NCBI GenBank assembly: GCA_035506175.1
Contig: DATJPZ010000049.1
Coordinates: forward strand, 13,356 to 77,355
Source: Thermoanaerobaculia bacterium
GTDB taxonomy: Bacteria > Acidobacteriota > Thermoanaerobaculia > UBA5066 > Gp7-AA6
Reading direction: 5' to 3'
Length of the DNA: 64,000 bases
Shown here: positions 14,323 through 62,791 of the stretch, in pieces
Layout: each line of letters starts with the position of its first letter
How positions within the stretch are numbered: position 1 is the stretch's first letter
Program-made: the position numbers and the translations under genes
The notes under the pieces: model-generated
Told to the model about the DNA's origin: nothing
The model's input: only the letters and a program-made list of their open reading frames with translations
The model's database searches: none

Positions 14323-15812
14323 GGGTTCGACGGGCGGCGGCGGTGTTCCTCGCGGTCGCCTCCGCCTGCCGACGGGCTCCGGCAAGCGCGGCGGCCGCGG
14401 TGGCGCCGAAGCCTCCGAAGGGCGACGTGCTGTGGCTCTCGGACCCGGCAGCCGCGGCCGACGCCGCGCTCGACGCTCAGGCCGAAAAGATCGGGGCCGC
14501 CGCGGTCTTTCTGGCGGCGGGCACTCTGGGGGCTCAACCCGGGCCCGGCGCCTTCGAGGCTGTGGCGCCGCCGCCGAAGCCGCTGACCCACGTTCCGGTC
14601 GTCCTCGTCGTGGCGCCGAGCGCGGCTCTGGCGGCCGCGCTCGCCAGCGGCGAAGGGCCCTCCGCCGCTCCGCTCGGGGCCGCGGGGGCCGCGGCGCTCG
14701 CCGCGGCGATTAGGGACGGGGCGTTCGGACGCGTGATCGGCGTCCACCTCGACTTTCCCTTCGGACCGAAGGCGGCCGCGCGCTACGCGGAGCTCGTCGG
14801 CGCGCTCCGGAAGGGGCTGCCGGCGGGTGTTTTCGTTTCGGTGTCGCTCAAGGCGCTGCCCGCGTCCGAGGACGACCGCAAAAAGGAGACGCCGCTCTAC
14901 GCGGCCGCCGACGCGCTCGTCGCCGTCGTCTTCGGCGTCGGGCCGCGCGTCGACCCGATCGCCACCGATGCCCTGCGCCGGCCCTGGTGGGCCGCCTACG
15001 ACACGCGAGCTGTCGGGGTTTTCACCGGGCCCGGCGGCGAGCCGCGGGGCGACGTGCCGGAGCGCCTGGCCGAGCCCCTTTCCGGAAACGCCCGCTTCCA
15101 ATTCGAGAACGACCTCTCGGTCAACGACGGGAGCGTCTGGGCCTTCACCCTCACGGCTCGCGCCCCGGTTCGACTGGAGGGGCTGGCCTTCGAGAGCGGC
15201 GACAGGGTCAACTTCCGGCTGCCCGCCGTCTCGGAGATGCTGTTCCAGCTCGGATCGAACCTGGCCGGCAAACGCTTCGCCCTCGGCCGCGCCCTCGTCT
15301 TCGGCGGCGCCACCGAAGCCGACCGGCTCTTCGACCTCGAGGCGATGGAAGACGTTCTGCTCGGGCGGGCGCTCGCGCCGCGGCTCGAGACCTCGGTCAG
15401 GCCGGCGGGCCGCAACGCCGTCGCCGTCGACCTCGCCAACCGTTCCGCGCATGCCTCGGTCGCCTCGCGCGTCGATAACTGGGTCGAGGTCGACGTCGCC
15501 CCCGCCCATCCCGCGGACGTCCAGGTCGGCGGCTTCGACCGCTACGAGGTGTTCGACCGCGCGGGCAAGGCGGTGACCCCCGGACGCGCCACCGTCGTGC
15601 GCTTCTACGAGACGCTGATCGCGCCCTTCGAGATCGTGACGCCCGCGCGCGTCGTCGTTCGCGGCAACCTCCCCGCGGCGTGCTGCCGGTACCGCGTCCA
15701 TGCCATGGCGGCGGCGGGACCCGAGGTGACGGAGGACTGGGTCGAGCCGCCCGCGCCGACGCCGAAGCCACGGCCGGAGGCGAAGAGGCCGCCTACGCGG
15801 AAGCGGGGCTGA
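14319..15812 (+). CDS. Hypothetical secreted/lipoprotein co-transcribed with the sensor kinase
   Basis: ATGA overlap with the kinase stop; N-terminus MRVRRAAAVFLAVASACRR (signal plus Cys); no known domain. Confidence 0.55.
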   Translation: MRVRRAAAVFLAVASACRRAPASAAAAVAPKPPKGDVLWLSDPAAAADAALDAQAEKIGAAAVFLAAGTLGAQPGPGAFEAVAPPPKPLTHVPVVLVVAPSAALAAALASGEGPSAAPLGAAGAAALAAAIRDGAFGRVIGVHLDFPFGPKAAARYAELVGALRKGLPAGVFVSVSLKALPASEDDRKKETPLYAAADALVAVVFGVGPRVDPIATDALRRPWWAAYDTRAVGVFTGPGGEPRGDVPERLAEPLSGNARFQFENDLSVNDGSVWAFTLTARAPVRLEGLAFESGDRVNFRLPAVSEMLFQLGSNLAGKRFALGRALVFGGATEADRLFDLEAMEDVLLGRALAPRLETSVRPAGRNAVAVDLANRSAHASVASRVDNWVEVDVAPAHPADVQVGGFDRYEVFDRAGKAVTPGRATVVRFYETLIAPFEIVTPARVVVRGNLPAACCRYRVHAMAAAGPEVTEDWVEPPAPTPKPRPEAKRPPTRKRG

Positions 15813-16539
15813 CCGGGTCCTTCCGGCGGAAGAGGCCGGCGATCTTGCCGACCGGCCCCGACACGACGAAGACGAGCGCGAGGGTCGCCAGCGCCATTTC
15901 CGGCCGGTAGGCGACGATGGCGAAGAAGAGCGCGATCGCCGGCAGGATCCAGGCGGGCCGGCGGCGCTTCAGGTCGAGGTCCTTGAAGGAGCGGTAGCGG
16001 ATCGTCGAGATCATCAGGAACGACAACAGGAACGTCAGCGCGAGCAGGCCTCCCATCCACATGCGGGACACGAGCCGCTCGGGTGTCGCGAGGACGATCG
16101 TCGCGACCGCGCCGGCCGCGGCCGGGATCGGCAGGCCGACGAAGTAGCGCTTGTCGACGATATGGGTCTGAATGTTGAAGCGGGCGAGCCGCATGGAGCC
16201 GCACACGACGAAGAGAAACGACGCCATCCAGCCGAGACGGTCGAAGTCGGCCAGCCCCCATGAATAGGCGAGCACGGCGGGAGCGACGCCGAAGGACACG
16301 AGGTCGGCCAGCGAGTCGTACTCCTCGCCGAATTCGGAAGTCGAGTGGGTCATCCGCGCGATGCGGCCGTCGAGCCCGTCGAGCACGCCGGCGGCGATGA
16401 TGAGGACGGCGGCGACCTCGAAGGTGCCGCGGATCGAGCACCAGAGGGAGAGGTACCCGCAGAAGAGGTTGCCGACCGTGAAGAGGGTCGGGAGGATGAA
16501 GAGGCCGCGCGACAGGCGCTCCCGGGAGAGGCGCGCCAC
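15793..16539 (-). CDS. pssA: CDP-diacylglycerol--serine O-phosphatidyltransferase
   Basis: CDP-alcohol phosphatidyltransferase motif DGLDGRIAR...FGEEYDSLADLVSFG. Confidence 0.9.
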   Translation of the reverse strand: MARLSRERLSRGLFILPTLFTVGNLFCGYLSLWCSIRGTFEVAAVLIIAAGVLDGLDGRIARMTHSTSEFGEEYDSLADLVSFGVAPAVLAYSWGLADFDRLGWMASFLFVVCGSMRLARFNIQTHIVDKRYFVGLPIPAAAGAVATIVLATPERLVSRMWMGGLLALTFLLSFLMISTIRYRSFKDLDLKRRRPAWILPAIALFFAIVAYRPEMALATLALVFVVSGPVGKIAGLFRRKDPVSPASA

Positions 16540-16540
16540 G

Positions 16541-17176
16541 TCAGGCGCCCCGGGGCCAGCGCGCGATCGCCGTCTGCCCGGCCTTGAGCTTGTCGCCCGG
16601 GCCGACGAGGACTTCGGCGCCGTCCGGCACGAAGAGGTCCACGCGGGAGCCGAAGCGGATCAGGCCGATGCGCTGCCCGCGGACCAGCGTGTCGCCGACC
16701 CGCGGATAGAAGATGATCCGGCGCGCGAGGGCACCCGCGATCTGCTTGAAGGTCACGCTGCCCGAGGGGGTGACGAGCGTGATGCGGTTCTGCTCGTTTT
16801 CCGCCGACGCCTTGTCGGAGAAGGCCGCCCCCTTCTGCCCGCGGACGTACGCGTAGTCGGCCAGACGGCCGGAGGCGGGAGCGCGGTTGACGTGGCAGTT
16901 GAAAACCGACATGAAGACCGACAGGCGCCGCCGAGCTCCCGGCGGGGCCTCGGGGGCCTCGGCGACGGAGAGGACGGTGCCGTCCGCGGGCGAGATCAGG
17001 GTGTCGTCGCCGCCCTCGGGCCGCCGCTCCGGATCCCGGAAGAACTGCACGAGAAAAAGCGTGGCGGCGCCCAAAACGGCTGCCGCCAGCGGGTGGCCGG
17101 TGAGGCCGGCCACGCCCCCGGCGGCGAGCGGCGGAACGATGAAGGCCCAGCCTTCGCGGGCGATCGGAACCCTCAG
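16541..17176 (-). CDS. psd: Phosphatidylserine decarboxylase (short/archaeal-type proenzyme), probable CTG start
   Basis: FGSRVD (GS pyruvoyl cleavage site) and FFRDPER; the conserved N-terminal IAREGWAFI is encoded upstream of the first canonical start (GTG 17113); CTG at 17176 has a GAGGAG SD 8 nt upstream and a CTGA overlap with the DUF465 stop. Confidence 0.75.
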   Translation of the reverse strand: MRVPIAREGWAFIVPPLAAGGVAGLTGHPLAAAVLGAATLFLVQFFRDPERRPEGGDDTLISPADGTVLSVAEAPEAPPGARRRLSVFMSVFNCHVNRAPASGRLADYAYVRGQKGAAFSDKASAENEQNRITLVTPSGSVTFKQIAGALARRIIFYPRVGDTLVRGQRIGLIRFGSRVDLFVPDGAEVLVGPGDKLKAGQTAIARWPRGA

Positions 17177-17397
17177 CTTGGGAGCTCCTCTCGGTGATGG
17201 CGGGCGATCGCTTCCATCCGGTCCTTGAGAAGGAGCTTTTCCTTCTTCAGGCGCTTTTCTTCCATCTCCTCGTCCTCGGAAAGGCGAGGCTTCCCGGCCA
17301 GCTCGTGGAGGCGCTGTTCGTGATGCCGGTGCTCTTCGCGCAGGCGGAGAAACTCCGGGTCGGACGCGGCAATCTCGCTGTTCCCGTGCTCCATCAT
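17173..17397 (-). CDS. DUF465 (YdcH-like) small protein
   Basis: 74 aa; HRHHEQRLHEL...LSEDEEMEEKRLKKEKLLLKDRM pattern typical of DUF465; AGGAGG SD 9 nt upstream of ATG. Confidence 0.7.
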   Translation of the reverse strand: MMEHGNSEIAASDPEFLRLREEHRHHEQRLHELAGKPRLSEDEEMEEKRLKKEKLLLKDRMEAIARHHREELPS

Positions 17398-17524
17398 CGG
17401 GTCAATCCTCCTTATCTTGTTCTCGAGAAAAGAGGGCGAGGCGGGTCACGAGTCCTAGTCTAGCCCCGGGTTCGGGGGGTTTCAACGGGGCGCGAAAGGC
17501 CCGCCGGGAGGGGGCTTTCCGCGT

Positions 17525-18013
17525 TCACCGGCCCTCCCCGTCGAGGGGCCGCACGAGGACGAGCGCGTCCTCGCCGTCCTGGTAGTACGCGCGCCGGCGG
17601 TACGCCTCCGTGAAGCCGTACGAGCCGTAAAACGTGCGCGCCGCGGCGTTGGAGATGCGCACCTCGAGGGTGATGGCCGTGGCGCCGATGAAACGCGCGC
17701 GGCCGAGGGCGTCCTCGAGGAGGACGCGGCCCCAGCCCTGGCGGCGCAGGCGCGCGTCGGTCGCGATCTTGTTGATGTGAAACTCCTCGTAGAGGGAGAC
17801 CGCGAACAGATAGCCGCCGATGCGGGGCGCGGCACCGTCCTCGCTCGCGAGGACGCGCAGGTAGCGGTGGGGCTCCACGAGCTCGCTCGCGAAGAAATCG
17901 CGCTTCCACGGCACCGGGAAGGATTCGGATTCGATCCGGGCGATCTCGTCGAGGTCGAAGGGGCTCGGCGGCCGGAGGCGGTACGGCCGCGGGCTCGGCT
18001 CACGCAGCGCCAT
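17525..18013 (-). CDS. rimI: Ribosomal-protein-alanine N-acetyltransferase (GNAT)
   Basis: GNAT motifs RRQGWGRVLLEDAL...FYGSYGF; 14-nt overlap with tsaB, as in rimI-tsaB operons. Confidence 0.8.
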   Translation of the reverse strand: MALREPSPRPYRLRPPSPFDLDEIARIESESFPVPWKRDFFASELVEPHRYLRVLASEDGAAPRIGGYLFAVSLYEEFHINKIATDARLRRQGWGRVLLEDALGRARFIGATAITLEVRISNAAARTFYGSYGFTEAYRRRAYYQDGEDALVLVRPLDGEGR

Positions 18014-32611: not shown

Positions 32612-32687
32612 TGGGGCGTCGCCAAACTGGTAAGGCACCGGCCTTTGGAGCCGGCATTTCTAGGTTCGAATCCTAGCGCCCCAGCCA
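32612..32687 (+). tRNA. tRNA-Gln (anticodon UUG)
   Basis: Cloverleaf folded by hand: acceptor UGGGGCG/CGCCCCA, anticodon stem CCGGC/GCCGG, loop CUUUGGA, T-arm CTAGG-TTCGAAT-CCTAG, encoded CCA. Confidence 0.85.
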
Positions 32688-34628: not shown

Positions 34629-35330
34629 ATGAAGACCATCGAACTTTCGGTCGAGAAGCGCTCGACCATCGGCAAGAACGAGGCCCGCCGCGAGCGGGCC
34701 GCCGGCCGCATTCCGGCCGTGGTGTACGGCGCCGGCAAGCCCAACGTGCCCATCTCGGTGGACCGCAAGGCCCTGTCGGACGTGTTCCGCGAGGGCGCCG
34801 GGGAAAACGCGATCTTCCTGTTGAAGCTCTCCGGCTCGGACCAGAGCCGGCACGCGATGATCCGGGAGATGCAGCGGGATCCGGTGTCGCGCAGGCCGCT
34901 CCACATCGACTTCGTCCGCGTCCTGATGGACGTCAAGATCACGGTCAAGGTGCCGATCGAGGTCCTCGGCGTCGCGCGCGGCGTCAAGACGGACGGCGGC
35001 ATCCTGGACGTCGTCACCCGCGAGGTCGAGATCGAGTGTCTGCCCGGGAACATCCCGGCGCACCTGGGCGTGGACGTGGCCGACCTCGGGATCGGCGACG
35101 CCATCCGCGTCTCCCAGGTCACGGCCCCGGAGGGCGTGCGCATCGTCGACAACCCGGAGAAGGTCGTCGTCCACGTCGCGCATCCGACGCGCGAAGAGGA
35201 GCCGGTCGCCGCCGCGGAGGGCGCCGCCGAGCCCGCAGAGCCCGAAGTGCTCAAGAAGGGCAAGGCCGTCTCCGAGGAAGAGGGCGCCGAGGAGAAGGGC
35301 GAGAAGAAGGAGAAGGAAAAGGAGAAGTAG
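34629..35330 (+). CDS. rplY: 50S ribosomal protein L25 / general stress protein Ctc
   Basis: MKTIELSVEKR...IPAVVYG L25 N-domain, lysine/glutamate-rich C-tail; start could also be GTG 34620. Confidence 0.85.
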   Translation: MKTIELSVEKRSTIGKNEARRERAAGRIPAVVYGAGKPNVPISVDRKALSDVFREGAGENAIFLLKLSGSDQSRHAMIREMQRDPVSRRPLHIDFVRVLMDVKITVKVPIEVLGVARGVKTDGGILDVVTREVEIECLPGNIPAHLGVDVADLGIGDAIRVSQVTAPEGVRIVDNPEKVVVHVAHPTREEEPVAAAEGAAEPAEPEVLKKGKAVSEEEGAEEKGEKKEKEKEK

Positions 35331-35333
35331 CCT

Positions 35334-35930
35334 CTGCGCGTCATCGTCGGCCTGGGCAACCCCGGGGACGATTACGCGGAGACCCGTCACAACGCCGGGT
35401 TCCGCGTGGTCGAGGCGCTGGCGGCGGAGGAAGGAATCCGGATCCGCTCGCGCGAGTGTTCGTCGAGGGTGGGCCGGGGAAGGGTCGGCGGGGAACCGGT
35501 GCTGCTCGCCCTTCCGCAGACGTACATGAACGCCTCCGGCGAGGCCGTTTCGGCTCTTTGCCAGAAATACAGCGTCGAACCCACGGAGCTCTGCGTCGTC
35601 GTCGACGACATCGATCTCCCGGTCGGGGCGCTGCGCCTGCGGGCGCGCGGCTCGGCGGGAGGGCAGAAGGGCCTGAAGTCGATCATCGCGCATCTCGGGA
35701 CGACGGAGTTTCCGAGGCTGCGCGTCGGGATCCGCGGCGAGCGCTACTCGCGCGACCGCGACCTGGCCGACTACGTGCTGGAGCCGGTGGCGAAGGCCGA
35801 ACGCGAAGCCTTCGCCGACAGTGTCGGGAGAGCCGCCGAGGCGGTGCGGCTGTGGGTCACGCAAGGAATCGACGCCGCGATGCGGCGAGCGAACGTTTCC
35901 CCCTCTCCGGGCGATCACGACCCGGATTGA
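35334..35930 (+). CDS. pth: Peptidyl-tRNA hydrolase, probable CTG start
   Basis: VIVGLGNPG...ETRHNAGF catalytic N-terminus lies upstream of the first canonical start (GTG 35406); CTG 35334 is 3 nt after the rplY TAG with an AAGGAG SD 9 nt upstream. Confidence 0.8.
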   Translation: MRVIVGLGNPGDDYAETRHNAGFRVVEALAAEEGIRIRSRECSSRVGRGRVGGEPVLLALPQTYMNASGEAVSALCQKYSVEPTELCVVVDDIDLPVGALRLRARGSAGGQKGLKSIIAHLGTTEFPRLRVGIRGERYSRDRDLADYVLEPVAKAEREAFADSVGRAAEAVRLWVTQGIDAAMRRANVSPSPGDHDPD

Positions 35931-49915: not shown

Positions 49916-50320
49916 GCGGCCCCGAGCGGGCCACGCGATCGCTCCGGTCTCCTTTCAACGAGGAGCCGGAGAGGAAAGTCCGAACTCCACACGGGCAGCA
50001 TGCCGGGTAACGCCCGGTCGCGGCGACGCGAAGGAAAGTGCCACAGAGAACAGACCGCCTTCCGAAAGGACGGCAAGGGTGAAACGGTGCGGTAAGAGCG
50101 CACCGCTCCGCCGGCAACGGCGGGGGCACGGTAAACCCCATGCGGAGCAAGGCCAAATAGGGAGGCAGCGGGCGCCCGTCCCGCCTCACCAAAAGTGAGC
50201 TGTCTCCGGGTCGGCTGCTCGAGCCCGAGGGCGACCTCGGGCCCAGAGGAATGATCGCGACCCCGGCCGGCACAACCGGCCGGGACACGGGATTCGGCTT
50301 ACCGGTCCGCTCGGGGCTTT
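49916..50320 (+). ncRNA. rnpB: RNase P RNA, bacterial type A
   Basis: Universal motifs GAGGAAAGUCCG and AGGGUGAAACGGUGCGGUAAGAGCGCACC, ACAGAACC..CGGCUUACCGG 3' region; P1 pairing 49919-49932 with 50304-50317; TAGAAT -10 at 49906-49911. Confidence 0.85.
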
Positions 50321-50390
50321 TCTGGATCGGTTTCGGGGTTTCCGGGTTTCCGGGACTGGGGTTGCGCTCGAGGACGGCGGTGGAGAGACC

Positions 50391-51323
50391 ATGAGCAGCC
50401 TGACTTGTCCCCCGCCGTTGAAGCGGGGCGCGACCGTCGGCGTGGCGGCGATCTCGGGGCCGGTCGACGAGGGCCGTCTCCAGTCCGGCGTCGCACACCT
50501 CGAGAGGCGCGGCTACCGCGTCGTGCTCGCGCCCAACGTCGGCCTCCGGCGCGGCTTCCTCGCCGGCACCGACGAGGAGCGCGCCGAGGGCTACCGGTCT
50601 CTCCTGCGCGATCCCTCGATTGATGCCATATTCTTCGCGCGCGGCGGCTACGGCGCCTCGCGGGTGCTGTCGCGGCTCGATCCGGCCGAGGCCGCGTCGC
50701 GGCCCCGCATCCACCTCGGCGGGTCTGACCTGACGGCGCTCTTCGCGTTTCTCGCCCGGCGCTGCGGCCTTGTCACCTACTACGGGCCGATGGTCGCGGT
50801 CGAGATGGCCAACGGCGAGGAACTCGACTGGGAGACCGTGCTCGCCGGGAACCCGCCGCCGCCCTATCGGATACCGCCCGCCCACGTGCTCGCGCCCGGC
50901 GCGGGGGAGGGGCCTCTCGTCGGCGGCTGCCTCTCGATCCTCGCCTCACTCTGCGGCACCCCGGACGCGATCGACGGCCGGGGTGCCGTCCTGTTCTGGG
51001 AAGACGTGGGCGAGGACACCTACCGGCTCGACCGAATGTTGACCCAACTGGAGCGGTCAGGTACATTCGATGGACTGCACGCCATGCTCATCGGCTCGAT
51101 TTCGCCCGGCCCGCGCGGCGGCGAGTCTCCTGAGATCGTCGGCGCCTGGCTCCGCGACTACTTCGCGGGAGCGCCGTTCCCGGTGGTCTCCGGGTTTCCG
51201 GCGGGCCACCTGCCCCGTCCCCGGACGATTCCGCTCGGCGCGCCGGTCCGGGTCGACGCGGGCTCCGGCCGGCTCGACTTTGGCGTGGCGACCGGGGCCG
51301 CGGGGGCGCCGTGCCCGGCGTGA
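50391..51323 (+). CDS. ldcA: LD-carboxypeptidase (muramoyltetrapeptide carboxypeptidase, peptidase S66)
   Basis: GGYGASR, nucleophile context GGSDLTAL, FWEDVGE, C-terminal His. Confidence 0.8.
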   Translation: MSSLTCPPPLKRGATVGVAAISGPVDEGRLQSGVAHLERRGYRVVLAPNVGLRRGFLAGTDEERAEGYRSLLRDPSIDAIFFARGGYGASRVLSRLDPAEAASRPRIHLGGSDLTALFAFLARRCGLVTYYGPMVAVEMANGEELDWETVLAGNPPPPYRIPPAHVLAPGAGEGPLVGGCLSILASLCGTPDAIDGRGAVLFWEDVGEDTYRLDRMLTQLERSGTFDGLHAMLIGSISPGPRGGESPEIVGAWLRDYFAGAPFPVVSGFPAGHLPRPRTIPLGAPVRVDAGSGRLDFGVATGAAGAPCPA

Positions 51324-52108
51324 AGGCCGTCTTCAAATCGGGGCCGGGGGGCGGCGGCAGGAATCCCTACGAGAAGTTTCTCGTCAGTCACCTGATGGGG
51401 GAGATCCTCTTTTCGGAAGGCGACATCGGCACCGACATGTACATCATTCAGTCGGGCACGGTGGAGCTGCTCAAGGCGATCGGCGGCGAGACCCGCGTCC
51501 TGTCGACCCTCGAGAAGGGCGACTTCTTCGGCGAGATGAGCGTCCTCGAGGACGTCCCCCGGTCGGCCTCCGCGCGCGCGAAGACCGACGTCGAGCTCGT
51601 GCGCATCAATGGCGCGACGTTCGACGCGATGTTGAAGAGCAACACCGAGATCGCCGTCCGGATGATGCGGAAGCTCTCGCGGCGCCTGCGCGAAGTCACG
51701 GCCATGCTCGAAGACGCCGTCGGCCGCCGGGTCCCCGAAGAAGAGAAGCCCGCCCCGCGCCGCGTCGAGCCAGAGCGCAACGCGTGCCGGCTCGTGTGCG
51801 ACGACCCGTCGGCCGAGTTCTACCTGAACCGGGAGGGCGACACCCTCGTCGGCCGGAGCGACCCCGTCACGGGAATCACCCCCGACGTGGACCTGACGCC
51901 GCTCGACCCGCAGCGCTCGACCTCGCGCCGCCACGCCAAGCTCTACCAGATGAGCGACACGTACTACGTCATGGAAGAGATCGGCGTGATGAACGGAACC
52001 TACGTCAACGGCAACCGGCTGACGACCGGCGTCCCGATTGCCGTGCAGAACGGCGACGTCCTGAAGTTCGGCCTGGTCTCGATGACCTTCCACGCCCCCG
52101 AGAGCTAG
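51311..52108 (+). CDS. Cyclic-nucleotide-binding domain + FHA domain protein
   Basis: GTG start overlapping the ldcA end by 13 nt; cNMP-binding motifs (GDIGTDMYIIQSGTVEL, FGEMSVL, RSASARA); C-terminal FHA (TLVGRSD...SRRHAKL...NGTYVNGNRL...GDVLKFG). Confidence 0.7.
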   Translation: MPGVKAVFKSGPGGGGRNPYEKFLVSHLMGEILFSEGDIGTDMYIIQSGTVELLKAIGGETRVLSTLEKGDFFGEMSVLEDVPRSASARAKTDVELVRINGATFDAMLKSNTEIAVRMMRKLSRRLREVTAMLEDAVGRRVPEEEKPAPRRVEPERNACRLVCDDPSAEFYLNREGDTLVGRSDPVTGITPDVDLTPLDPQRSTSRRHAKLYQMSDTYYVMEEIGVMNGTYVNGNRLTTGVPIAVQNGDVLKFGLVSMTFHAPES

Positions 52109-52177
52109 TTCATCGCCGAGCCCGCGTCCCCTCCGGCCCTCCTGAGTCTGCGCGACCCGGTCTCGAGGATTCCCGGC

Positions 52178-54136
52178 GTGGGCCCCGCGCGCGCCGAGAA
52201 GCTCGCGGCCGAGGGATTCCGGACGATCGGCGACTTCCTGCTCGCGTTGCCGTTCCGGTACGAGGACCGCCGGCGCTTCGCGACGATCGCCAGCCTCGAA
52301 TGGGACCGTCCGGCGACGGTCCTCGTGACCTTCCGGGGCGTGCGGTCGGTGCGGATGCGCCGCGGGCTGCTGCGCGTCGAGGCGCTCGCCGACGACGGCA
52401 CCGGGGCGGTCCGCGTCGTCTGGCACAACCGGTATCCATCCTTCGCGAAGGCGCTCGACGGCGCGCGGGCCGCGCTCTACGGCGCTCCGACGGCGTCGTC
52501 CAGGGGCGAGATGCGGATCGAGAACCCCGAGACCGAGTTCATCGCGGCGGGCGAGGAGGCGGACCCCGTCCACTCGGGGCGCGTCGTCGGCGTCTACCAT
52601 CGGGCGGCCGACGTCGGTACACGGCTCTGGCGCAGCCTCGTGCGGAGAACGCTCGACCGCCTGAGCCCGGGCTTCGCCAGCGCGGCGGCCGCCGCTCCCG
52701 CAATCCGCTCGGCGCTCGAGGAGGCGCACTTCCCGTCCTCGGAAGAGGCGGCGGGGGCCGCCCGGCGGCTGCTGGCGCAGGAGGAGCTCCTCGTCCTGGC
52801 CTCCGGCATCGAGGAGAAGCGGGCGCGCCTCCATGCGCGCCGCGGGATCCGGCTCGAAGCCAGCGACGCGTTGCGCCAGCGCACGCGCGAGGCCCTGCCG
52901 TTTTCGCTCACGGGCGCCCAGCGGCGCGCCGTGCGCGAGATCGCGGCCGACCTCGCCTCGGGACGCGCCATGGCCCGGCTCCTCCAGGGCGACGTCGGGT
53001 CGGGCAAGACGGTCGTGGCGGGACTCGCCCTGATGCTGGCCGCGGGCAACCGCGTCCAGGGGGCGCTCATGGCGCCCACCGAGATCCTCGCCGAGCAGCA
53101 CGCCGAGAGCCTCGCGTCGTGGCTGACCGGGGCCGGCGTGCGCCTGGCACTCCTGACCGGGCGCGTGCGCGGCGCCGCGCGCCGCCGCCTGCTCGAGGAG
53201 CTCGCCTCGGGACGAATCGACGTCCTCGTCGGCACGCACGCGCTCGCGGAGGCGCCGGTGACCTTCCGGCGGCTCGGCCTCGTGGTCGTGGACGAGCAGC
53301 ACCGCTTCGGCGTGGCGCACCGCGCGCGCCTGTTCCGGAAGGGCGACGCGCCCCACGTCCTCGTCATGACCGCGACGCCGATTCCCCGGTCCCTCGCGTG
53401 GGCGATCTACGGCGAGCTCGACGTCTCCGTCCTCGACGAAAAGCCCCCCGGGCGCGGCGAGATCGTCACGCGGGTGCGCGACGAGGAAGGGCGGGCGAAG
53501 GTCTACGCGTTCGCCGCCGAGCGGGTCGCGGCCGGCGAGCGGGTTTACGTCGTCGTCCCGGCAATCGAGGAGGGGGAACGCGAGGTGGCGGCCACGCGCG
53601 CGACGGCGCGGCGGCTCGCGGAGGCCCTCCCCGGCGTCCGCGTCGAGGTTCTCCACGGCCGGATGCCGGCGCCCGACCGCACCACCGTGCTGCGGGACTT
53701 CGCCAGCGGCCGCGCCCCGGTCCTCGTGTCGACGACGGTCGTCGAGGTCGGGGTGGACGTGCCCGAGGCGACGCTCATGGTCGTCGAAAACGCCGAGGTG
53801 TTCGGGCTCGCCCAGCTCCACCAGCTCCGCGGCCGCGTCGGCCGGAGCACGCGCGCATCCTGGTGCGCGCTGATCGCGGGGCCCGGGGCGACGCCGGAGG
53901 CCCGCCAGCGCCTCGCCGTCCTCGAGCAGACGTCGGACGGCTTCGCGATCGCCGAGCGCGACCTCGAGGCGCGAGGTCCGGGCGACCTGCTCGGCAGCCG
54001 CCAGTCCGGCCTGCCGGCAATGCGCGTGGCGGATCCCGTTCGGGACCTCGCGGCCCTCGGGGAGGCGCGGCGGCGGGTGGCGGCCCTTCGCGAGGCGGGA
54101 CAGGCGGTGCGGAGCGACCTGTTCGGGTATCCGTAG
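52178..54136 (+). CDS. recG: ATP-dependent DNA helicase RecG
   Basis: GVGPARAEKLAAEGFRTIGDFLLALPFRYEDR wedge region, Walker A GDVGSGKT, DEQHRFGV, QLRGRVGR; GTG start with AGGA 7 nt upstream. Confidence 0.92.
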   Translation: MGPARAEKLAAEGFRTIGDFLLALPFRYEDRRRFATIASLEWDRPATVLVTFRGVRSVRMRRGLLRVEALADDGTGAVRVVWHNRYPSFAKALDGARAALYGAPTASSRGEMRIENPETEFIAAGEEADPVHSGRVVGVYHRAADVGTRLWRSLVRRTLDRLSPGFASAAAAAPAIRSALEEAHFPSSEEAAGAARRLLAQEELLVLASGIEEKRARLHARRGIRLEASDALRQRTREALPFSLTGAQRRAVREIAADLASGRAMARLLQGDVGSGKTVVAGLALMLAAGNRVQGALMAPTEILAEQHAESLASWLTGAGVRLALLTGRVRGAARRRLLEELASGRIDVLVGTHALAEAPVTFRRLGLVVVDEQHRFGVAHRARLFRKGDAPHVLVMTATPIPRSLAWAIYGELDVSVLDEKPPGRGEIVTRVRDEEGRAKVYAFAAERVAAGERVYVVVPAIEEGEREVAATRATARRLAEALPGVRVEVLHGRMPAPDRTTVLRDFASGRAPVLVSTTVVEVGVDVPEATLMVVENAEVFGLAQLHQLRGRVGRSTRASWCALIAGPGATPEARQRLAVLEQTSDGFAIAERDLEARGPGDLLGSRQSGLPAMRVADPVRDLAALGEARRRVAALREAGQAVRSDLFGYP

Positions 54137-57205: not shown

Positions 57206-58180
57206 TCAGAAGGACATCGCCTTCAGCGCCGACGCCGCCTTCGCGCGGACGAAGCCGTTTTCCTGCGGGTCGACCGCTTTCTCTTTGAGCGATTCGATCG
57301 TGCTCGCATCCGGCGACTGGCGCGCGGCGGCCGCCAGCGCGTCGATGGCCGCGAGCCTCACGGCGGGGTTCTTGTCCGACTTGAGCGCCTGGAGGAACGC
57401 CGCGCGGATTTCGGGCGTCGACTGGAACGACGCGAGCGTGTCGGCGGCCTTCTTGCGAACCCCGGGGTTGCCGTCGGCCCTGAGCGTCGAGGTCAGCGCG
57501 GCGACGATCTCGGGCGAGGCCGGCGCCGCGTTCGTCCCGTAGTGTTCGGAGACGACCTCGATCGCGCGCGACTTCTCCCCGGCGCTCTCGGAGTTGTGTG
57601 CCACGAGATAGGCGAGGAGCTTCGCGACCTCCGGGTCGTTCGGCTTGCCTTCGACTTCGCGGCGCGTCGTGACGTCGAACCCGATCGCGACGCGGCCGTC
57701 CTTGTCCGCCGGGCGATAGGAGACGTTGGCGAGGCGCGGGTTGCCGGCAAGCCCCGGAACTCCCGCCGCGCCGGGGGCCGTCGGCGTGACGGCGGCCACG
57801 GGCCAGGAAGGAGAGGCCGCGGGCGAGGCGGAGTCGCGGCCCGGAAGACCTCGCGCGAGGAGATAGCCGACGCCCGCGGCGGCGACGAGCGCCGCCGCCT
57901 GGAGGAGCGGGCGCCGGAACGTCGGCGTCGGCCGGAAGGCTTTGACGCGGCCTCGAATCATCTCCTCTTCGAGGAGCCCGAGCGTGCGGCGCCGGAACTC
58001 GGGCGTCACCTCGGGCTCGGGATCGCGGCCGAGCGTCGTCCAGAGCTCTTCGAGCCTTTCGAGGTCGCGGCGGCAGCTTTCGCAGGCGTCCACGTGAGCG
58101 TCGAGCTCGCGGCGCGAGGCCTCGGAGGCCTCGCCGGTCAGGCGTTCGATCCCAAGCGTCGTCAGGTCGCGGCAGTCCAT
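57206..58180 (-). CDS. Anti-sigma factor (ZAS zinc-finger H-x3-C-x2-C, one TM helix, periplasmic HEAT-like repeats)
   Basis: Start set at internal ATG 58180 (MDCRDLTT...ELDAHVDACESC); overlaps the sigma-gene end by 19 nt; HEAT-like repeats (NPGVRKKAADTLA, NPAVRLAAIDALA). Confidence 0.7.
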   Translation of the reverse strand: MDCRDLTTLGIERLTGEASEASRRELDAHVDACESCRRDLERLEELWTTLGRDPEPEVTPEFRRRTLGLLEEEMIRGRVKAFRPTPTFRRPLLQAAALVAAAGVGYLLARGLPGRDSASPAASPSWPVAAVTPTAPGAAGVPGLAGNPRLANVSYRPADKDGRVAIGFDVTTRREVEGKPNDPEVAKLLAYLVAHNSESAGEKSRAIEVVSEHYGTNAAPASPEIVAALTSTLRADGNPGVRKKAADTLASFQSTPEIRAAFLQALKSDKNPAVRLAAIDALAAAARQSPDASTIESLKEKAVDPQENGFVRAKAASALKAMSF

Positions 58181-61314: not shown

Positions 61315-62040
61315 ATGAGCGAGACCGAACCCGGAACCGGCGCCGTCGCGGTGGCCGAGAAGGAAGAGCGCCCCCCGCGCGAGACCTCGGGCGCCCGGAT
61401 CCTCGGCGCGGTCGAGGCGGTGCTCTTCTCGTCGCCGCGGCCGGTCCGCGAAAAGGACCTCGGGGAGCTGCTCGACGCGACGCCGGCGGCCGTCTCGGAG
61501 GCGCTCTCGATGCTGGGAACTCGCACCGACGGGGAAGACCGCGGCATCCGCCTCGAGAAGGTCGCCGGCGGCTGGCGCTTCGTGACGCGCCCGGAGTTCG
61601 ACGGGCTCCTGCGGCGGTTCCACGAAGTCACCGAGCGGAGCCGCCTGTCCCTCGCCGCCCTCGAGACGCTCGCCATCATCGCCTACCGCCAGCCGATCAC
61701 GCTGCCCGAAATCCAGGAGATCCGCGGCGTCAACTCCTCGAGCGTGCTGAAGACGCTGTTCGAGAAGAAGCTGATCACGACGGCCGGGAAGAAGGCCGTG
61801 GTGGGTTCCCCGTTTTTCTACCGCACGACGCCCGACTTCCTGATGCGCTTCGGGTTGAACGAGCTCGACGAGCTGCCGCGCCCCGAGGATCTCGATGCGG
61901 ACCTCGCGTCGACGCTGGAGGCGCGGGAGATTGCGGCGCCGACGGCCGCGGCGCCCTCCATCCACGTCGAGGTCGAGACGGGCGAGGACGCGCTCGACGA
62001 CGCGGACGCGCCGGGGCCCGAACCCGACGCGGAGGTCTGA
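61315..62040 (+). CDS. scpB: Segregation and condensation protein B
   Basis: ILGAVEAVLFSSPRPV...ETLAIIAYRQPITLPEIQEIRGV winged-helix repeats. Confidence 0.88.
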   Translation: MSETEPGTGAVAVAEKEERPPRETSGARILGAVEAVLFSSPRPVREKDLGELLDATPAAVSEALSMLGTRTDGEDRGIRLEKVAGGWRFVTRPEFDGLLRRFHEVTERSRLSLAALETLAIIAYRQPITLPEIQEIRGVNSSSVLKTLFEKKLITTAGKKAVVGSPFFYRTTPDFLMRFGLNELDELPRPEDLDADLASTLEAREIAAPTAAAPSIHVEVETGEDALDDADAPGPEPDAEV

Positions 62041-62041
62041 C

Positions 62042-62791
62042 CTGGCGCTCGTCCGCATCCAGAAAATCATCGCGTCGAGCGGCCTCGCCTCCCGCCGCGA
62101 AGCCGAGGAGTGGATCCGGCAAGGGCGGGTGCGCGTCAACGGCAAGCTCGCGAGCCTCGGCGACCGCGCCGACCCGGTCGCCGACTCGATCAAGGTCGAC
62201 GACCGCCGCGTCCGCGCCGCCTCGGGACCGCGGACGTACCTTCTCCTGAACAAGCCGAAAGGCTACGTCACGACGGTGAGCGATCCCGAGGGCCGCGACA
62301 CGGTGCTGCAGCTCCTGCCCGGGCGCCTGCGCCGGACGGTGAAGCCGGTCGGCCGCCTCGACGTGCAGACGGAGGGCCTGCTCCTCCTGACGGACGACGG
62401 CGACCTCGCGCGGCTCGTGACGCATCCGTCGACGGGTTGCCCCAAGGAGTACCTCGTGAAGGTCTCCGGCGAGCCGACGCCCGCGCAGCTCGAAAAGCTG
62501 CGGCGCGGCGTTTTTCTCGACGGCGAGCGGACGCGGCCCTGCGACATCGACCGCGTGTCGGGCACGCCGCGCCGCGAGGGGCAGGAAGGCAACACGTGGC
62601 TTCGGGTCACGCTCCGCGAGGGCCGAAGCCGGCAACTCCGCCGGATGTTCGCGGCGGTCGGCCACCCGGTGTCCAAGCTCCGCCGCGTCGCGATCGGGCC
62701 GGTGCGCGACGAGACCCTGTCGCCCGGGGCGAGCCGGCTCCTGAGCGCCGCCGAAGTCGCCGCCCTGAAGCGGCTCGGAAAACCGCAGTGA
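62042..62791 (+). CDS. rluB: 23S rRNA pseudouridine synthase (RluB/RsuA family), probable CTG start
   Basis: S4 domain (RIQKIIASSGLASRREAEEWIRQGRVRVNGK) plus catalytic GRLDVQTEGLLLLTDDG; no ATG/GTG/TTG between the scpB stop and the S4 domain except TTG 61931 deep inside scpB; CTG 62042 has a GGAGGT SD 5 nt upstream. Confidence 0.75.
   Translation: MALVRIQKIIASSGLASRREAEEWIRQGRVRVNGKLASLGDRADPVADSIKVDDRRVRAASGPRTYLLLNKPKGYVTTVSDPEGRDTVLQLLPGRLRRTVKPVGRLDVQTEGLLLLTDDGDLARLVTHPSTGCPKEYLVKVSGEPTPAQLEKLRRGVFLDGERTRPCDIDRVSGTPRREGQEGNTWLRVTLREGRSRQLRRMFAAVGHPVSKLRRVAIGPVRDETLSPGASRLLSAAEVAALKRLGKPQ

Follow-up and report, generated by a model that had tools for sequence, protein, structure and literature searches.

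A CTG Codon Overlapping the DUF465 Stop Codon Is the Probable Start of psd in a Thermoanaerobaculia Bacterium

We have studied the start of the psd gene in a 64,000-nucleotide stretch of DNA from a Thermoanaerobaculia bacterium. This whole stretch, which has a G+C content of ~72%, will be called the window. According to the family models, the product of psd is a short-form (archaetidylserine-decarboxylase-like) phosphatidylserine decarboxylase (PSD) proenzyme. In the mechanical list of open reading frames (ORFs) the longest canonical psd ORF is that at 16541..17113 on the minus strand, which starts with GTG and encodes 190 aa, and in the window sequence there is no ATG, GTG or TTG in the psd frame from the upstream stop codon to GTG 17113. 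Upstream of this GTG the frame reads ...PKLRVPIAREGWAFIVPPLAAGG-V(GTG). A first-pass annotation of the DNA had claimed that this upstream part encodes the conserved IAREGW N-terminus of the enzyme, and that a CTG codon at 17176-17174 is the only plausible initiator. Does psd start at the CTG, and if so, is this shared by its relatives and by other genes, and how might such a codon be used?

We conclude that psd of the window bacterium very probably starts at CTG 17176-17174, on the evidence of sequence comparison. The elements of the junction are as follows.

16541..17176, minus strand: psd as proposed, 211 codons, from CTG 17176 to TGA 16543-16541
17174..17176, minus strand: CTG (CUG), the proposed psd initiator, in frame and 21 codons 5′ of GTG 17113
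17173..17176, minus strand: CTGA, a 4-nt overlap of the proposed psd start with the TGA of DUF465 (17175-17173), a spacing of −4
17185..17190, minus strand: GAGGAG, Shine-Dalgarno-like, with an 8-nt spacer to the CTG and lying within the last DUF465 codons
17114..17173, minus strand: psd codons 2-21 (RVPIAREGWAFIVPPLAAGG), a conserved N-terminal segment that is lost with a start at GTG 17113
17173..17397, minus strand: DUF465 gene, 74 aa, Pfam PF04325

The GAGGAG and the CTGA overlap with the DUF465 stop had been reported by the first-pass annotation, and both lie exactly where it had placed them. The upstream ORF matches PF04325 over residues 16-64 with 34.1 bits (gathering cutoff 25). Its own start is an ATG preceded at 7 nt by an AAGGAGG Shine-Dalgarno (SD) sequence (AAGGAGG-N7-ATG).

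The N-terminus of the Psd protein

The psd frame of the window stays open for 75 codons upstream, across most of DUF465. At a G+C content of ~72% an open frame alone carries little weight, and it is homology that carries the case. The continuation of the frame past GTG 17113 into a conserved IAREGW N-terminus is borne out by the ORF list, by the NCBIfam models and by the orthologues. The protein matches PF02666 with E = 7.9e-38 and 130.6 bits (cutoff 22), and this domain model begins only at psd residue 40. With the full-length NCBIfam PSD models the alignment starts at residue 3-5 of the CTG-started protein, matched to model positions 2-12; in the case of NF003685, psd residues 5-208 are aligned with positions 2-194 of a model of 198, with 201.6 bits (cutoff 183). 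Orthologues have the N-termini MKIPIAREGW (P0120), MRIPIA (P0112) and MPVAREGW (P0071, P0077 and P0078), and the short-form N-terminal segment falls inside the coding sequence only if the start is at or near CTG 17176. A motif for the putative Gly-Ser self-cleavage site (GS[T/R]), at which the pyruvoyl group would be formed, is identified by sequence only as ...LIRFGSRVDLF... in the window Psd and in nearly all of its relatives. The 211-aa translation is identical to the NCBI protein HTY41277.1 / P0001. The CTG call for psd is thus already public, made by the NCBI pipeline, and it is found in a sister genome also.

The codons of this segment were compared in 23 sequences, i.e., the window and the loci of 22 species-representative genomes. 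Throughout codons 2-16 the residues are kept while the codons vary synonymously. Pro4 is encoded by CCG in 15 sequences and CCC in eight, Ala6 by GCC, GCG or GCT, Arg7 by CGC, CGG or CGA, Glu8 by GAA in 11 and GAG in 11, and Gly9 by four different codons. Codon 3 is variable, being GTT, ATC, ATT, GTC, ATA, TTT and others. On the 5′ side of the CTG, each of the three adjoining bases is the majority base in just 12-14 of the 23 sequences. Given this variability in front of the CTG and the codon-periodic conservation that sets in from codon 2, selection at the level of the protein begins at the CTG.

Conservation of the CTG codon and other readings of the start

Relatives were collected by a scan in which each species was represented by one genome, giving 25 Thermoanaerobaculia loci in which the tblastn match extends over the N-terminus. 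The CTG set comprises 25 sequences, these being the window, L001-L022 (species-representative genomes) and two contigs, L169 and L170. All 25 have CTGA at the homologous position, and the genome loci L001-L022 share 62-95% identity in PSD. The three most distant loci, L023-L025 (55-59% PSD identity), have GTG followed by A at this position. The NTGA overlap with the DUF465 ORF is found in the window and in 27 of 27 related Thermoanaerobaculia loci. In L015 an in-frame TGA lies five codons 5′ of the CTG; the four sense codons between include no initiator, and therefore the start there lies no farther upstream than the CTG.

A GGAG or GAGG core is found 7-10 nt 5′ of the start in 19 of the 23 CTG-type sequences, against none of the three GTG-type loci. 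This distribution fits the idea that the SD sequence may compensate for a weak codon. Inspection of the 20 nt upstream of psd in L023-L025 revealed no Shine-Dalgarno-like sequence (…GAAACCGCAACCGC-GTGA), an observation that is anecdotal with three loci only.

Could psd be started elsewhere? A start at ATC 17164-17162, codon 5, would give MAREGW..., with GAGGG at 17174-17170, five nt upstream, as its SD sequence; the spacing (GAGGG-TTCCG-ATC) is acceptable, and in Escherichia coli ATC is a near-cognate codon of strength like that of CUG (bioRxiv 10.1101/063800). The NCBI pipeline has picked the codon-5 position, as ATC or ATT, in two relatives (P0037 and P0014, MAREGW), and NF003685 aligns psd residue 5 to model position 2. 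However, codon 5 is GTC, CTC, CTT or TTC in six of the 23 sequences. The residues at codons 2-4 (R/K, hydrophobic, P) are retained, with the Pro codon alternating between CCG and CCC as given above, so these codons are translated. The MKIPIAREGW and MRIPIA of distant orthologues begin exactly at the CTG position rather than at codon 5, and it is with the CTG, not with codon 5, that the GTG of L023-L025 aligns. We regard the ATC as an improbable start, and a start at GTG 17113, with the upstream similarity a relic, as more improbable still. That GTG is the only ATG, GTG or TTG in the upstream region, and dozens of public Psd entries have the corresponding 190 aa. These entries are the product of gene callers limited to three start codons, the 21 codons upstream of the GTG are under purifying selection at the protein level and match the PSD models, and the GTG at codon 22 is not conserved. 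Among relatives the index of the first canonical codon, counted from the CTG, ranges from 13 to 89; it is 89 in L013 and 61 in L022, where a start would delete much of Psd. Orthologue N-termini thus include the IAREGW segment, and there is no consistent start at the equivalent of GTG 17113. Both the ATC and the GTG are rejected on conservation. The claim that the CTG is the only plausible initiator holds in part: comparative data reject the ATC, but the single sequence does not. Alternatively, Psd might be made as a fusion with DUF465 by ribosomal frameshifting near the end of DUF465, with no separate initiation, and the frame that is open for 75 codons across most of DUF465 would permit this. 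Yet at 72% GC one expects alternative frames to be open, a slippery heptamer is lacking, the bases in front of the CTG differ among sequences (AAG, CAG, GAG, GCA, CCA or CAC), and outgroups have a plain GTG start there. We reject such a fusion, for which we see scarcely any likelihood, by the in-frame stop of L015 together with the lack of a slippery site. Lastly, apart from the rarity of CTG starts there is nothing to suggest that an ATG or GTG has been misread or misassembled as CTG. The same CTGA is present in 24 other independently assembled loci, from short-read (k141_...) and other assemblies to judge by the contig names, which refutes a base-call error and reduces its probability almost to nothing.

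Probable CTG starts in pth and rluB

The first-pass annotation had suggested that CUG initiation is used at several conserved genes of the organism, naming pth and rluB. We have compared both with their relatives, and both suggestions are upheld.

35334..35930, plus strand: pth (peptidyl-tRNA hydrolase), with a CTG start at 35334-35336, 9 nt after AAGGAG
62042..62791, plus strand: rluB-type pseudouridine synthase, with a proposed CTG start at 62042-62044

The gene upstream of pth, which is probably L25/Ctc, ends ...KEKEKEK-TAG (35328-35330); this is followed by CCT, by CTG 35334 and by RVIVGLGNPG. The window has no canonical start before the GLGNPG motif, the in-frame TAG being one codon 5′ of the CTG. 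The comparison comprised 52 sequences, of which 43 are distinct: the window and 51 metagenome loci at 64-99% identity (among loci L081-L135). The CTG is invariant in all 43 distinct sequences. By contrast, the preceding spacer codon is hypervariable (CCT, TCT, CGC, AGC, GGC and others), there are synonymous differences at codon 3 (GCG 21, GCC 15), and an equally conserved internal residue, Leu7, is encoded by CTC in 33 sequences and CTG in 10. The difference between 43 of 43 at the start and 10 of 43 at Leu7 corresponds to a Fisher p = 6e-15, a value that ignores phylogeny. In outgroups (L138-L160, <=51% identity) the exact codon is ATG, GTG or TTG. The NCBI pipeline makes the CTG call for pth (198 aa, HTY41297.1) as it does for psd in the window genome, and in a sister genome it starts pth at ATC (195 aa, P0123). 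Prodigal-type entries of 174 aa (P0122, P0124-P0128) lack the GLGNPG...RHN region.

At rluB the junction with the stop of scpB reads GGAGG-TC-TGA-C-CTG (62032-62044). We compared eight syntenic loci of 22 kb, L161-L168, fetched through their recG homologues. The CTG is kept in six genomes, those of the window and of five of the eight loci. L161, L164 and L165 have GGAGG-NN-TGA-C-CTG as in the window, and L162 and L166 have GGAG-TGA-NN-CTG. In L167 and L168, the outgroups in this comparison, ATG stands at the exact homologue of the CTG. NCBI starts rluB of the window at ATC 62057 (244 aa, HTY41322.1); the comparison favors CTG 62042 as the probable start. The rluB calls in L161, L164 and L165 have 171-220 aa and lack the S4 domain. 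In L162 and L166 there is also a GTG two codons 5′ of the CTG, overlapping the scpB stop (GTGA) and the GGAG core. Gene callers take that GTG; its SD spacing would be 0 nt against 5 nt for the CTG, which fits the CTG better.

A further gene has no canonical start before its conserved region.

52109..52180, plus strand: N-terminal region of recG, lacking a canonical start ahead of the conserved RDPVSRIPGVGP segment

An in-frame TAG occupies 52106-52108, and the first canonical codon, GTG 52178, is inside the GVGP motif of the IPGVGP segment. In the stop-to-stop translation the alignment with RecG models begins at residue 7-16. In L164-L166 a stop lies <=16 codons 5′ of RDPVSRIPG with no canonical codon between. 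More distant RecG orthologues start MRLRD..., (TTG)LRDP... or MPPAERIRLRDP... The choice among the candidate initiators CTG 52142, CTG 52148 and ATC 52112 is ambiguous. Public RecG entries of the clade range from 589 to 696 aa.

How common are such starts in the window? A crude GC3-based scan for coding potential, with our own crude gene calls, located all three CTG starts with an error of at most one codon and also flagged ~10 other ORFs. On inspection of the DNA and the NCBIfam matches, uvrB, uvrC, the gene after rpsR and the gene after tRNA-Gln proved to have acceptable canonical starts. Only recG remained of the flagged ORFs, five of which have no family match. Among roughly 55 genes of the window there are thus three firm non-canonical starts (psd, pth and rluB) and one probable (recG).

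On the crude gene list the −4 overlaps of the window comprise ATGA six times, GTGA six times, TTGA three times and CTGA four times. Of the four CTGA junctions, that of psd is the only one without a canonical start a few codons away. The two whose stops are at 1900 and 59527 have a canonical GTG 2-4 codons downstream and were not counted; neither was that at 58162, where the homologous Prodigal call in L161 starts the downstream gene ~19 nt 5′ of the stop.

The window also contains a bacterial class A RNase P RNA at 49923-50317 on the plus strand (Rfam RF00010, 274 bits), the 3′ part of which is overlapped by a spurious-looking long ORF at 50199..51323. Its sole tRNA, a tRNA-Gln with anticodon UUG, is at 32612-32687 on the plus strand, upstream of a cluster with a prs-like gene, rplY/ctc, pth and rpsF.

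Proposed coupled initiation and comparison with known systems

The setting of psd bears on how the CUG might be used. Two further features belong to it.

15793..16539, minus strand: pssA (CDP-diacylglycerol-serine O-phosphatidyltransferase), from the ORF list and a motif in the translation
17457..17485, minus strand: sigma-70-like promoter, TTGAAA-17 nt-TAGACT, upstream of DUF465, a consensus match only

The GTG start of pssA lies 1 nt past the psd TGA (TGAcGTG), and its translation contains the motif DG-x2-AR-x8-G-x3-D-x3-D; PF01066 is recorded for the homologous neighbor of psd in L169 and L170. The sigma-70-like site is the sole promoter-like site in 15700-17700, where shuffled sequences lead us to expect 0.0, and it is likely to be the promoter of the operon. 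A consensus scan of the same interval found no promoter-like and no convincing terminator-like site at the DUF465-psd junction.

A DUF465 ORF lies upstream of psd in 25 of 25 Thermoanaerobaculia genome loci. A same-strand DUF465 ORF is directly 5′ of psd in about 28-30 further loci (among L026-L080). These are mostly from named Acidobacteriota (Terracidiphilus, Acidobacteriaceae and others), together with one Coatesbacteria metagenome-assembled genome (MAG), and among L026-L080 no DUF465 match was found upstream of psd in alphaproteobacterial loci. The adjacency hints at a possible phylum-wide functional tie between this uncharacterized small protein and phospholipid synthesis.

The three CTG starts of the window share their arrangement. 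From stop to CTG the spacing is −4 for psd (CTGA), +3 for pth (TAG NNN CTG) and +1 for rluB (TGA C CTG). An SD core of >=5 nt placed 6-9 nt upstream is found in all three, against nine of the 50 other, canonically started genes of the window on crude start calls. The proximity to upstream stops and the strong SD sequences suggest SD-assisted, translationally coupled weak initiation, and we infer the following course of events for psd. DUF465, psd and pssA would form one operon, transcribed from the promoter upstream of DUF465. Ribosomes completing DUF465, with its strong AAGGAGG and ATG, would terminate at a UGA, two bases of which also belong to the psd CUG, and the GAGGAG 8 nt upstream may keep a 30S or 70S particle in register on the CUG. 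The initiator tRNA (fMet-tRNA) would then be able to decode the near-cognate CUG, and the product would be the 211-aa proenzyme MRVPIAREGW.... A weak CUG could keep the output of the Psd membrane enzyme low and tied to the translation of DUF465. The same design would serve for pth and rluB, each having its CUG no more than 3 nt from the stop of the preceding gene, together with a GGAG-type SD sequence.

The −4 NTGA overlap is the commonest arrangement for coupling in prokaryotes (PMC12548453, PMC6728339). Nevertheless, the CUG might be used by ordinary SD-driven 30S initiation, independent of DUF465 translation, with the overlap a by-product of gene packing. A strong SD sequence at optimal spacing would allow this, no occluding RNA structure was found at the DUF465-psd junction, and −4 overlaps evolve easily (review PMC12548453). 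On the other hand, an upstream stop is found within 3 nt of all three CTG starts, and the DUF465-psd overlap is retained in the window and every one of the 27 related loci. Moreover the GTG-type loci keep the overlap without any SD sequence, which suggests that ribosomes were ancestrally loaded on psd by coupling. We consider independent initiation a serious though lesser possibility, and lean slightly toward a coupling of psd translation to that of DUF465.

Several points weigh against our account of the psd start and its use. The evidence is all comparative, and every genome is an uncultured MAG. The T and G of the CTG are set by the overlapping stop, so that only the C is independent evidence. 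This C also serves DUF465 as the third base of its last codon (AGC, CAC or ACC, and GCG in the GTG group), and in most loci a C-to-G change would be non-synonymous for DUF465. The constraint exerted by DUF465 is weak, but not zero, because the last residue varies (S, H, T or A). The conservation counts and statistics ignore phylogeny. In reporters in E. coli, CUG has 1-2%, or 0.02-3%, of the activity of AUG (bioRxiv 10.1101/063800), so that a housekeeping enzyme started on CUG would need compensation or lineage-specific tolerance. Finally, no conserved RNA hairpin was found over the psd SD sequence and start, the RNAalifold consensus being only −2.98 kcal/mol with one compensatory pair, and the single-sequence fold at the junction has z = −0.12 relative to shuffles. 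Coupling of the unfolding type is thus unsupported.

What would CUG starts imply for the lineage? Either these CUG-started enzymes need very little expression or the lineage reads CUG better. We suggest, tentatively and with less than even confidence, that a deep clade of Thermoanaerobaculia may use CUG as a routine fourth start, especially after upstream termination, held by selection over long divergence. If so, ~5% of the window genes are affected (psd, pth, rluB and probably recG), and there may have been a lineage-specific retuning of start-codon proofreading (IF3, initiator tRNA or the 16S P-site, all of them encoded outside the window) or a reinitiation tolerant of CUG. Many public proteins of the clade would then be truncated at the N-terminus. 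Callers limited to ATG, GTG and TTG cut 21 residues from Psd (the dozens of 190-aa entries, P0005-P0036), 24 residues from Pth, including GLGNPG and the catalytic His region, and the S4 domain from RluB. The NCBI pipeline rescues these genes inconsistently, choosing CTG for one genome but ATC or ATT for sister genomes. CUG at stop-start junctions with a strong SD sequence offers a natural test of coupling, of SD compensation and of the stringency of start-codon selection across phyla.

Our literature searches for CTG or CUG starts in Acidobacteria or Thermoanaerobaculia found nothing, and the clade-wide fixation of CUG in several unrelated housekeeping genes, at stop-start junctions with strong SD sequences, appears to be undescribed. 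The enzyme itself is conventional. Psd corresponds to short-form PSD (NCBIfam PRK05305 / TIGR00164) in domain, length, FGSR motif and adjacent pssA, and shares its N-terminal I-x-R/K-E-G-W/Y-x-F segment; only the start codon is unusual.

The weak AUU start of E. coli infC is functionally retained. In Streptomyces, sigR has a GTC start and is repressed through IF3 (PMC5472188). As in psd, an initiator other than AUG, GUG or UUG appears to be kept by selection in these genes, presumably setting or regulating a low level of expression. They differ in the codon used, in that psd is not known to be under a regulatory loop, and in that here several unrelated housekeeping genes of a lineage are concerned, always beside an upstream stop.

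CUG is listed as a start in genetic code table 11. It is one of the four near-cognates, with AUA, AUC and AUU, that support initiation in E. coli (Hecht et al., bioRxiv 10.1101/063800). The known system closest in layout to psd is that of the NTGA termination-reinitiation pairs (Huber et al. 2019, PMC6728339; PMC12548453). These too are co-oriented in one operon with a 4-nt overlap of UGA and start, with an SD sequence inside the upstream gene and an overlap conserved among relatives. They start with AUG, GUG or UUG, whereas psd would start with CUG, and a text search for CUG in those two papers (PMC6728339 and PMC12548453) found no occurrence. Evolutionary switches to CUG are among the rarest recorded, at two of 61,358 AUG starts and one of 5,080 GUG starts (Belinky et al. 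2017, PMC5622118), and in E. coli initiation on CUG is very inefficient. The fixation of CUG in several essential or housekeeping genes is informative for this reason. Set against that rarity and weakness, CUG is here the fixed start of at least three genes within 64 kb throughout a deep clade.

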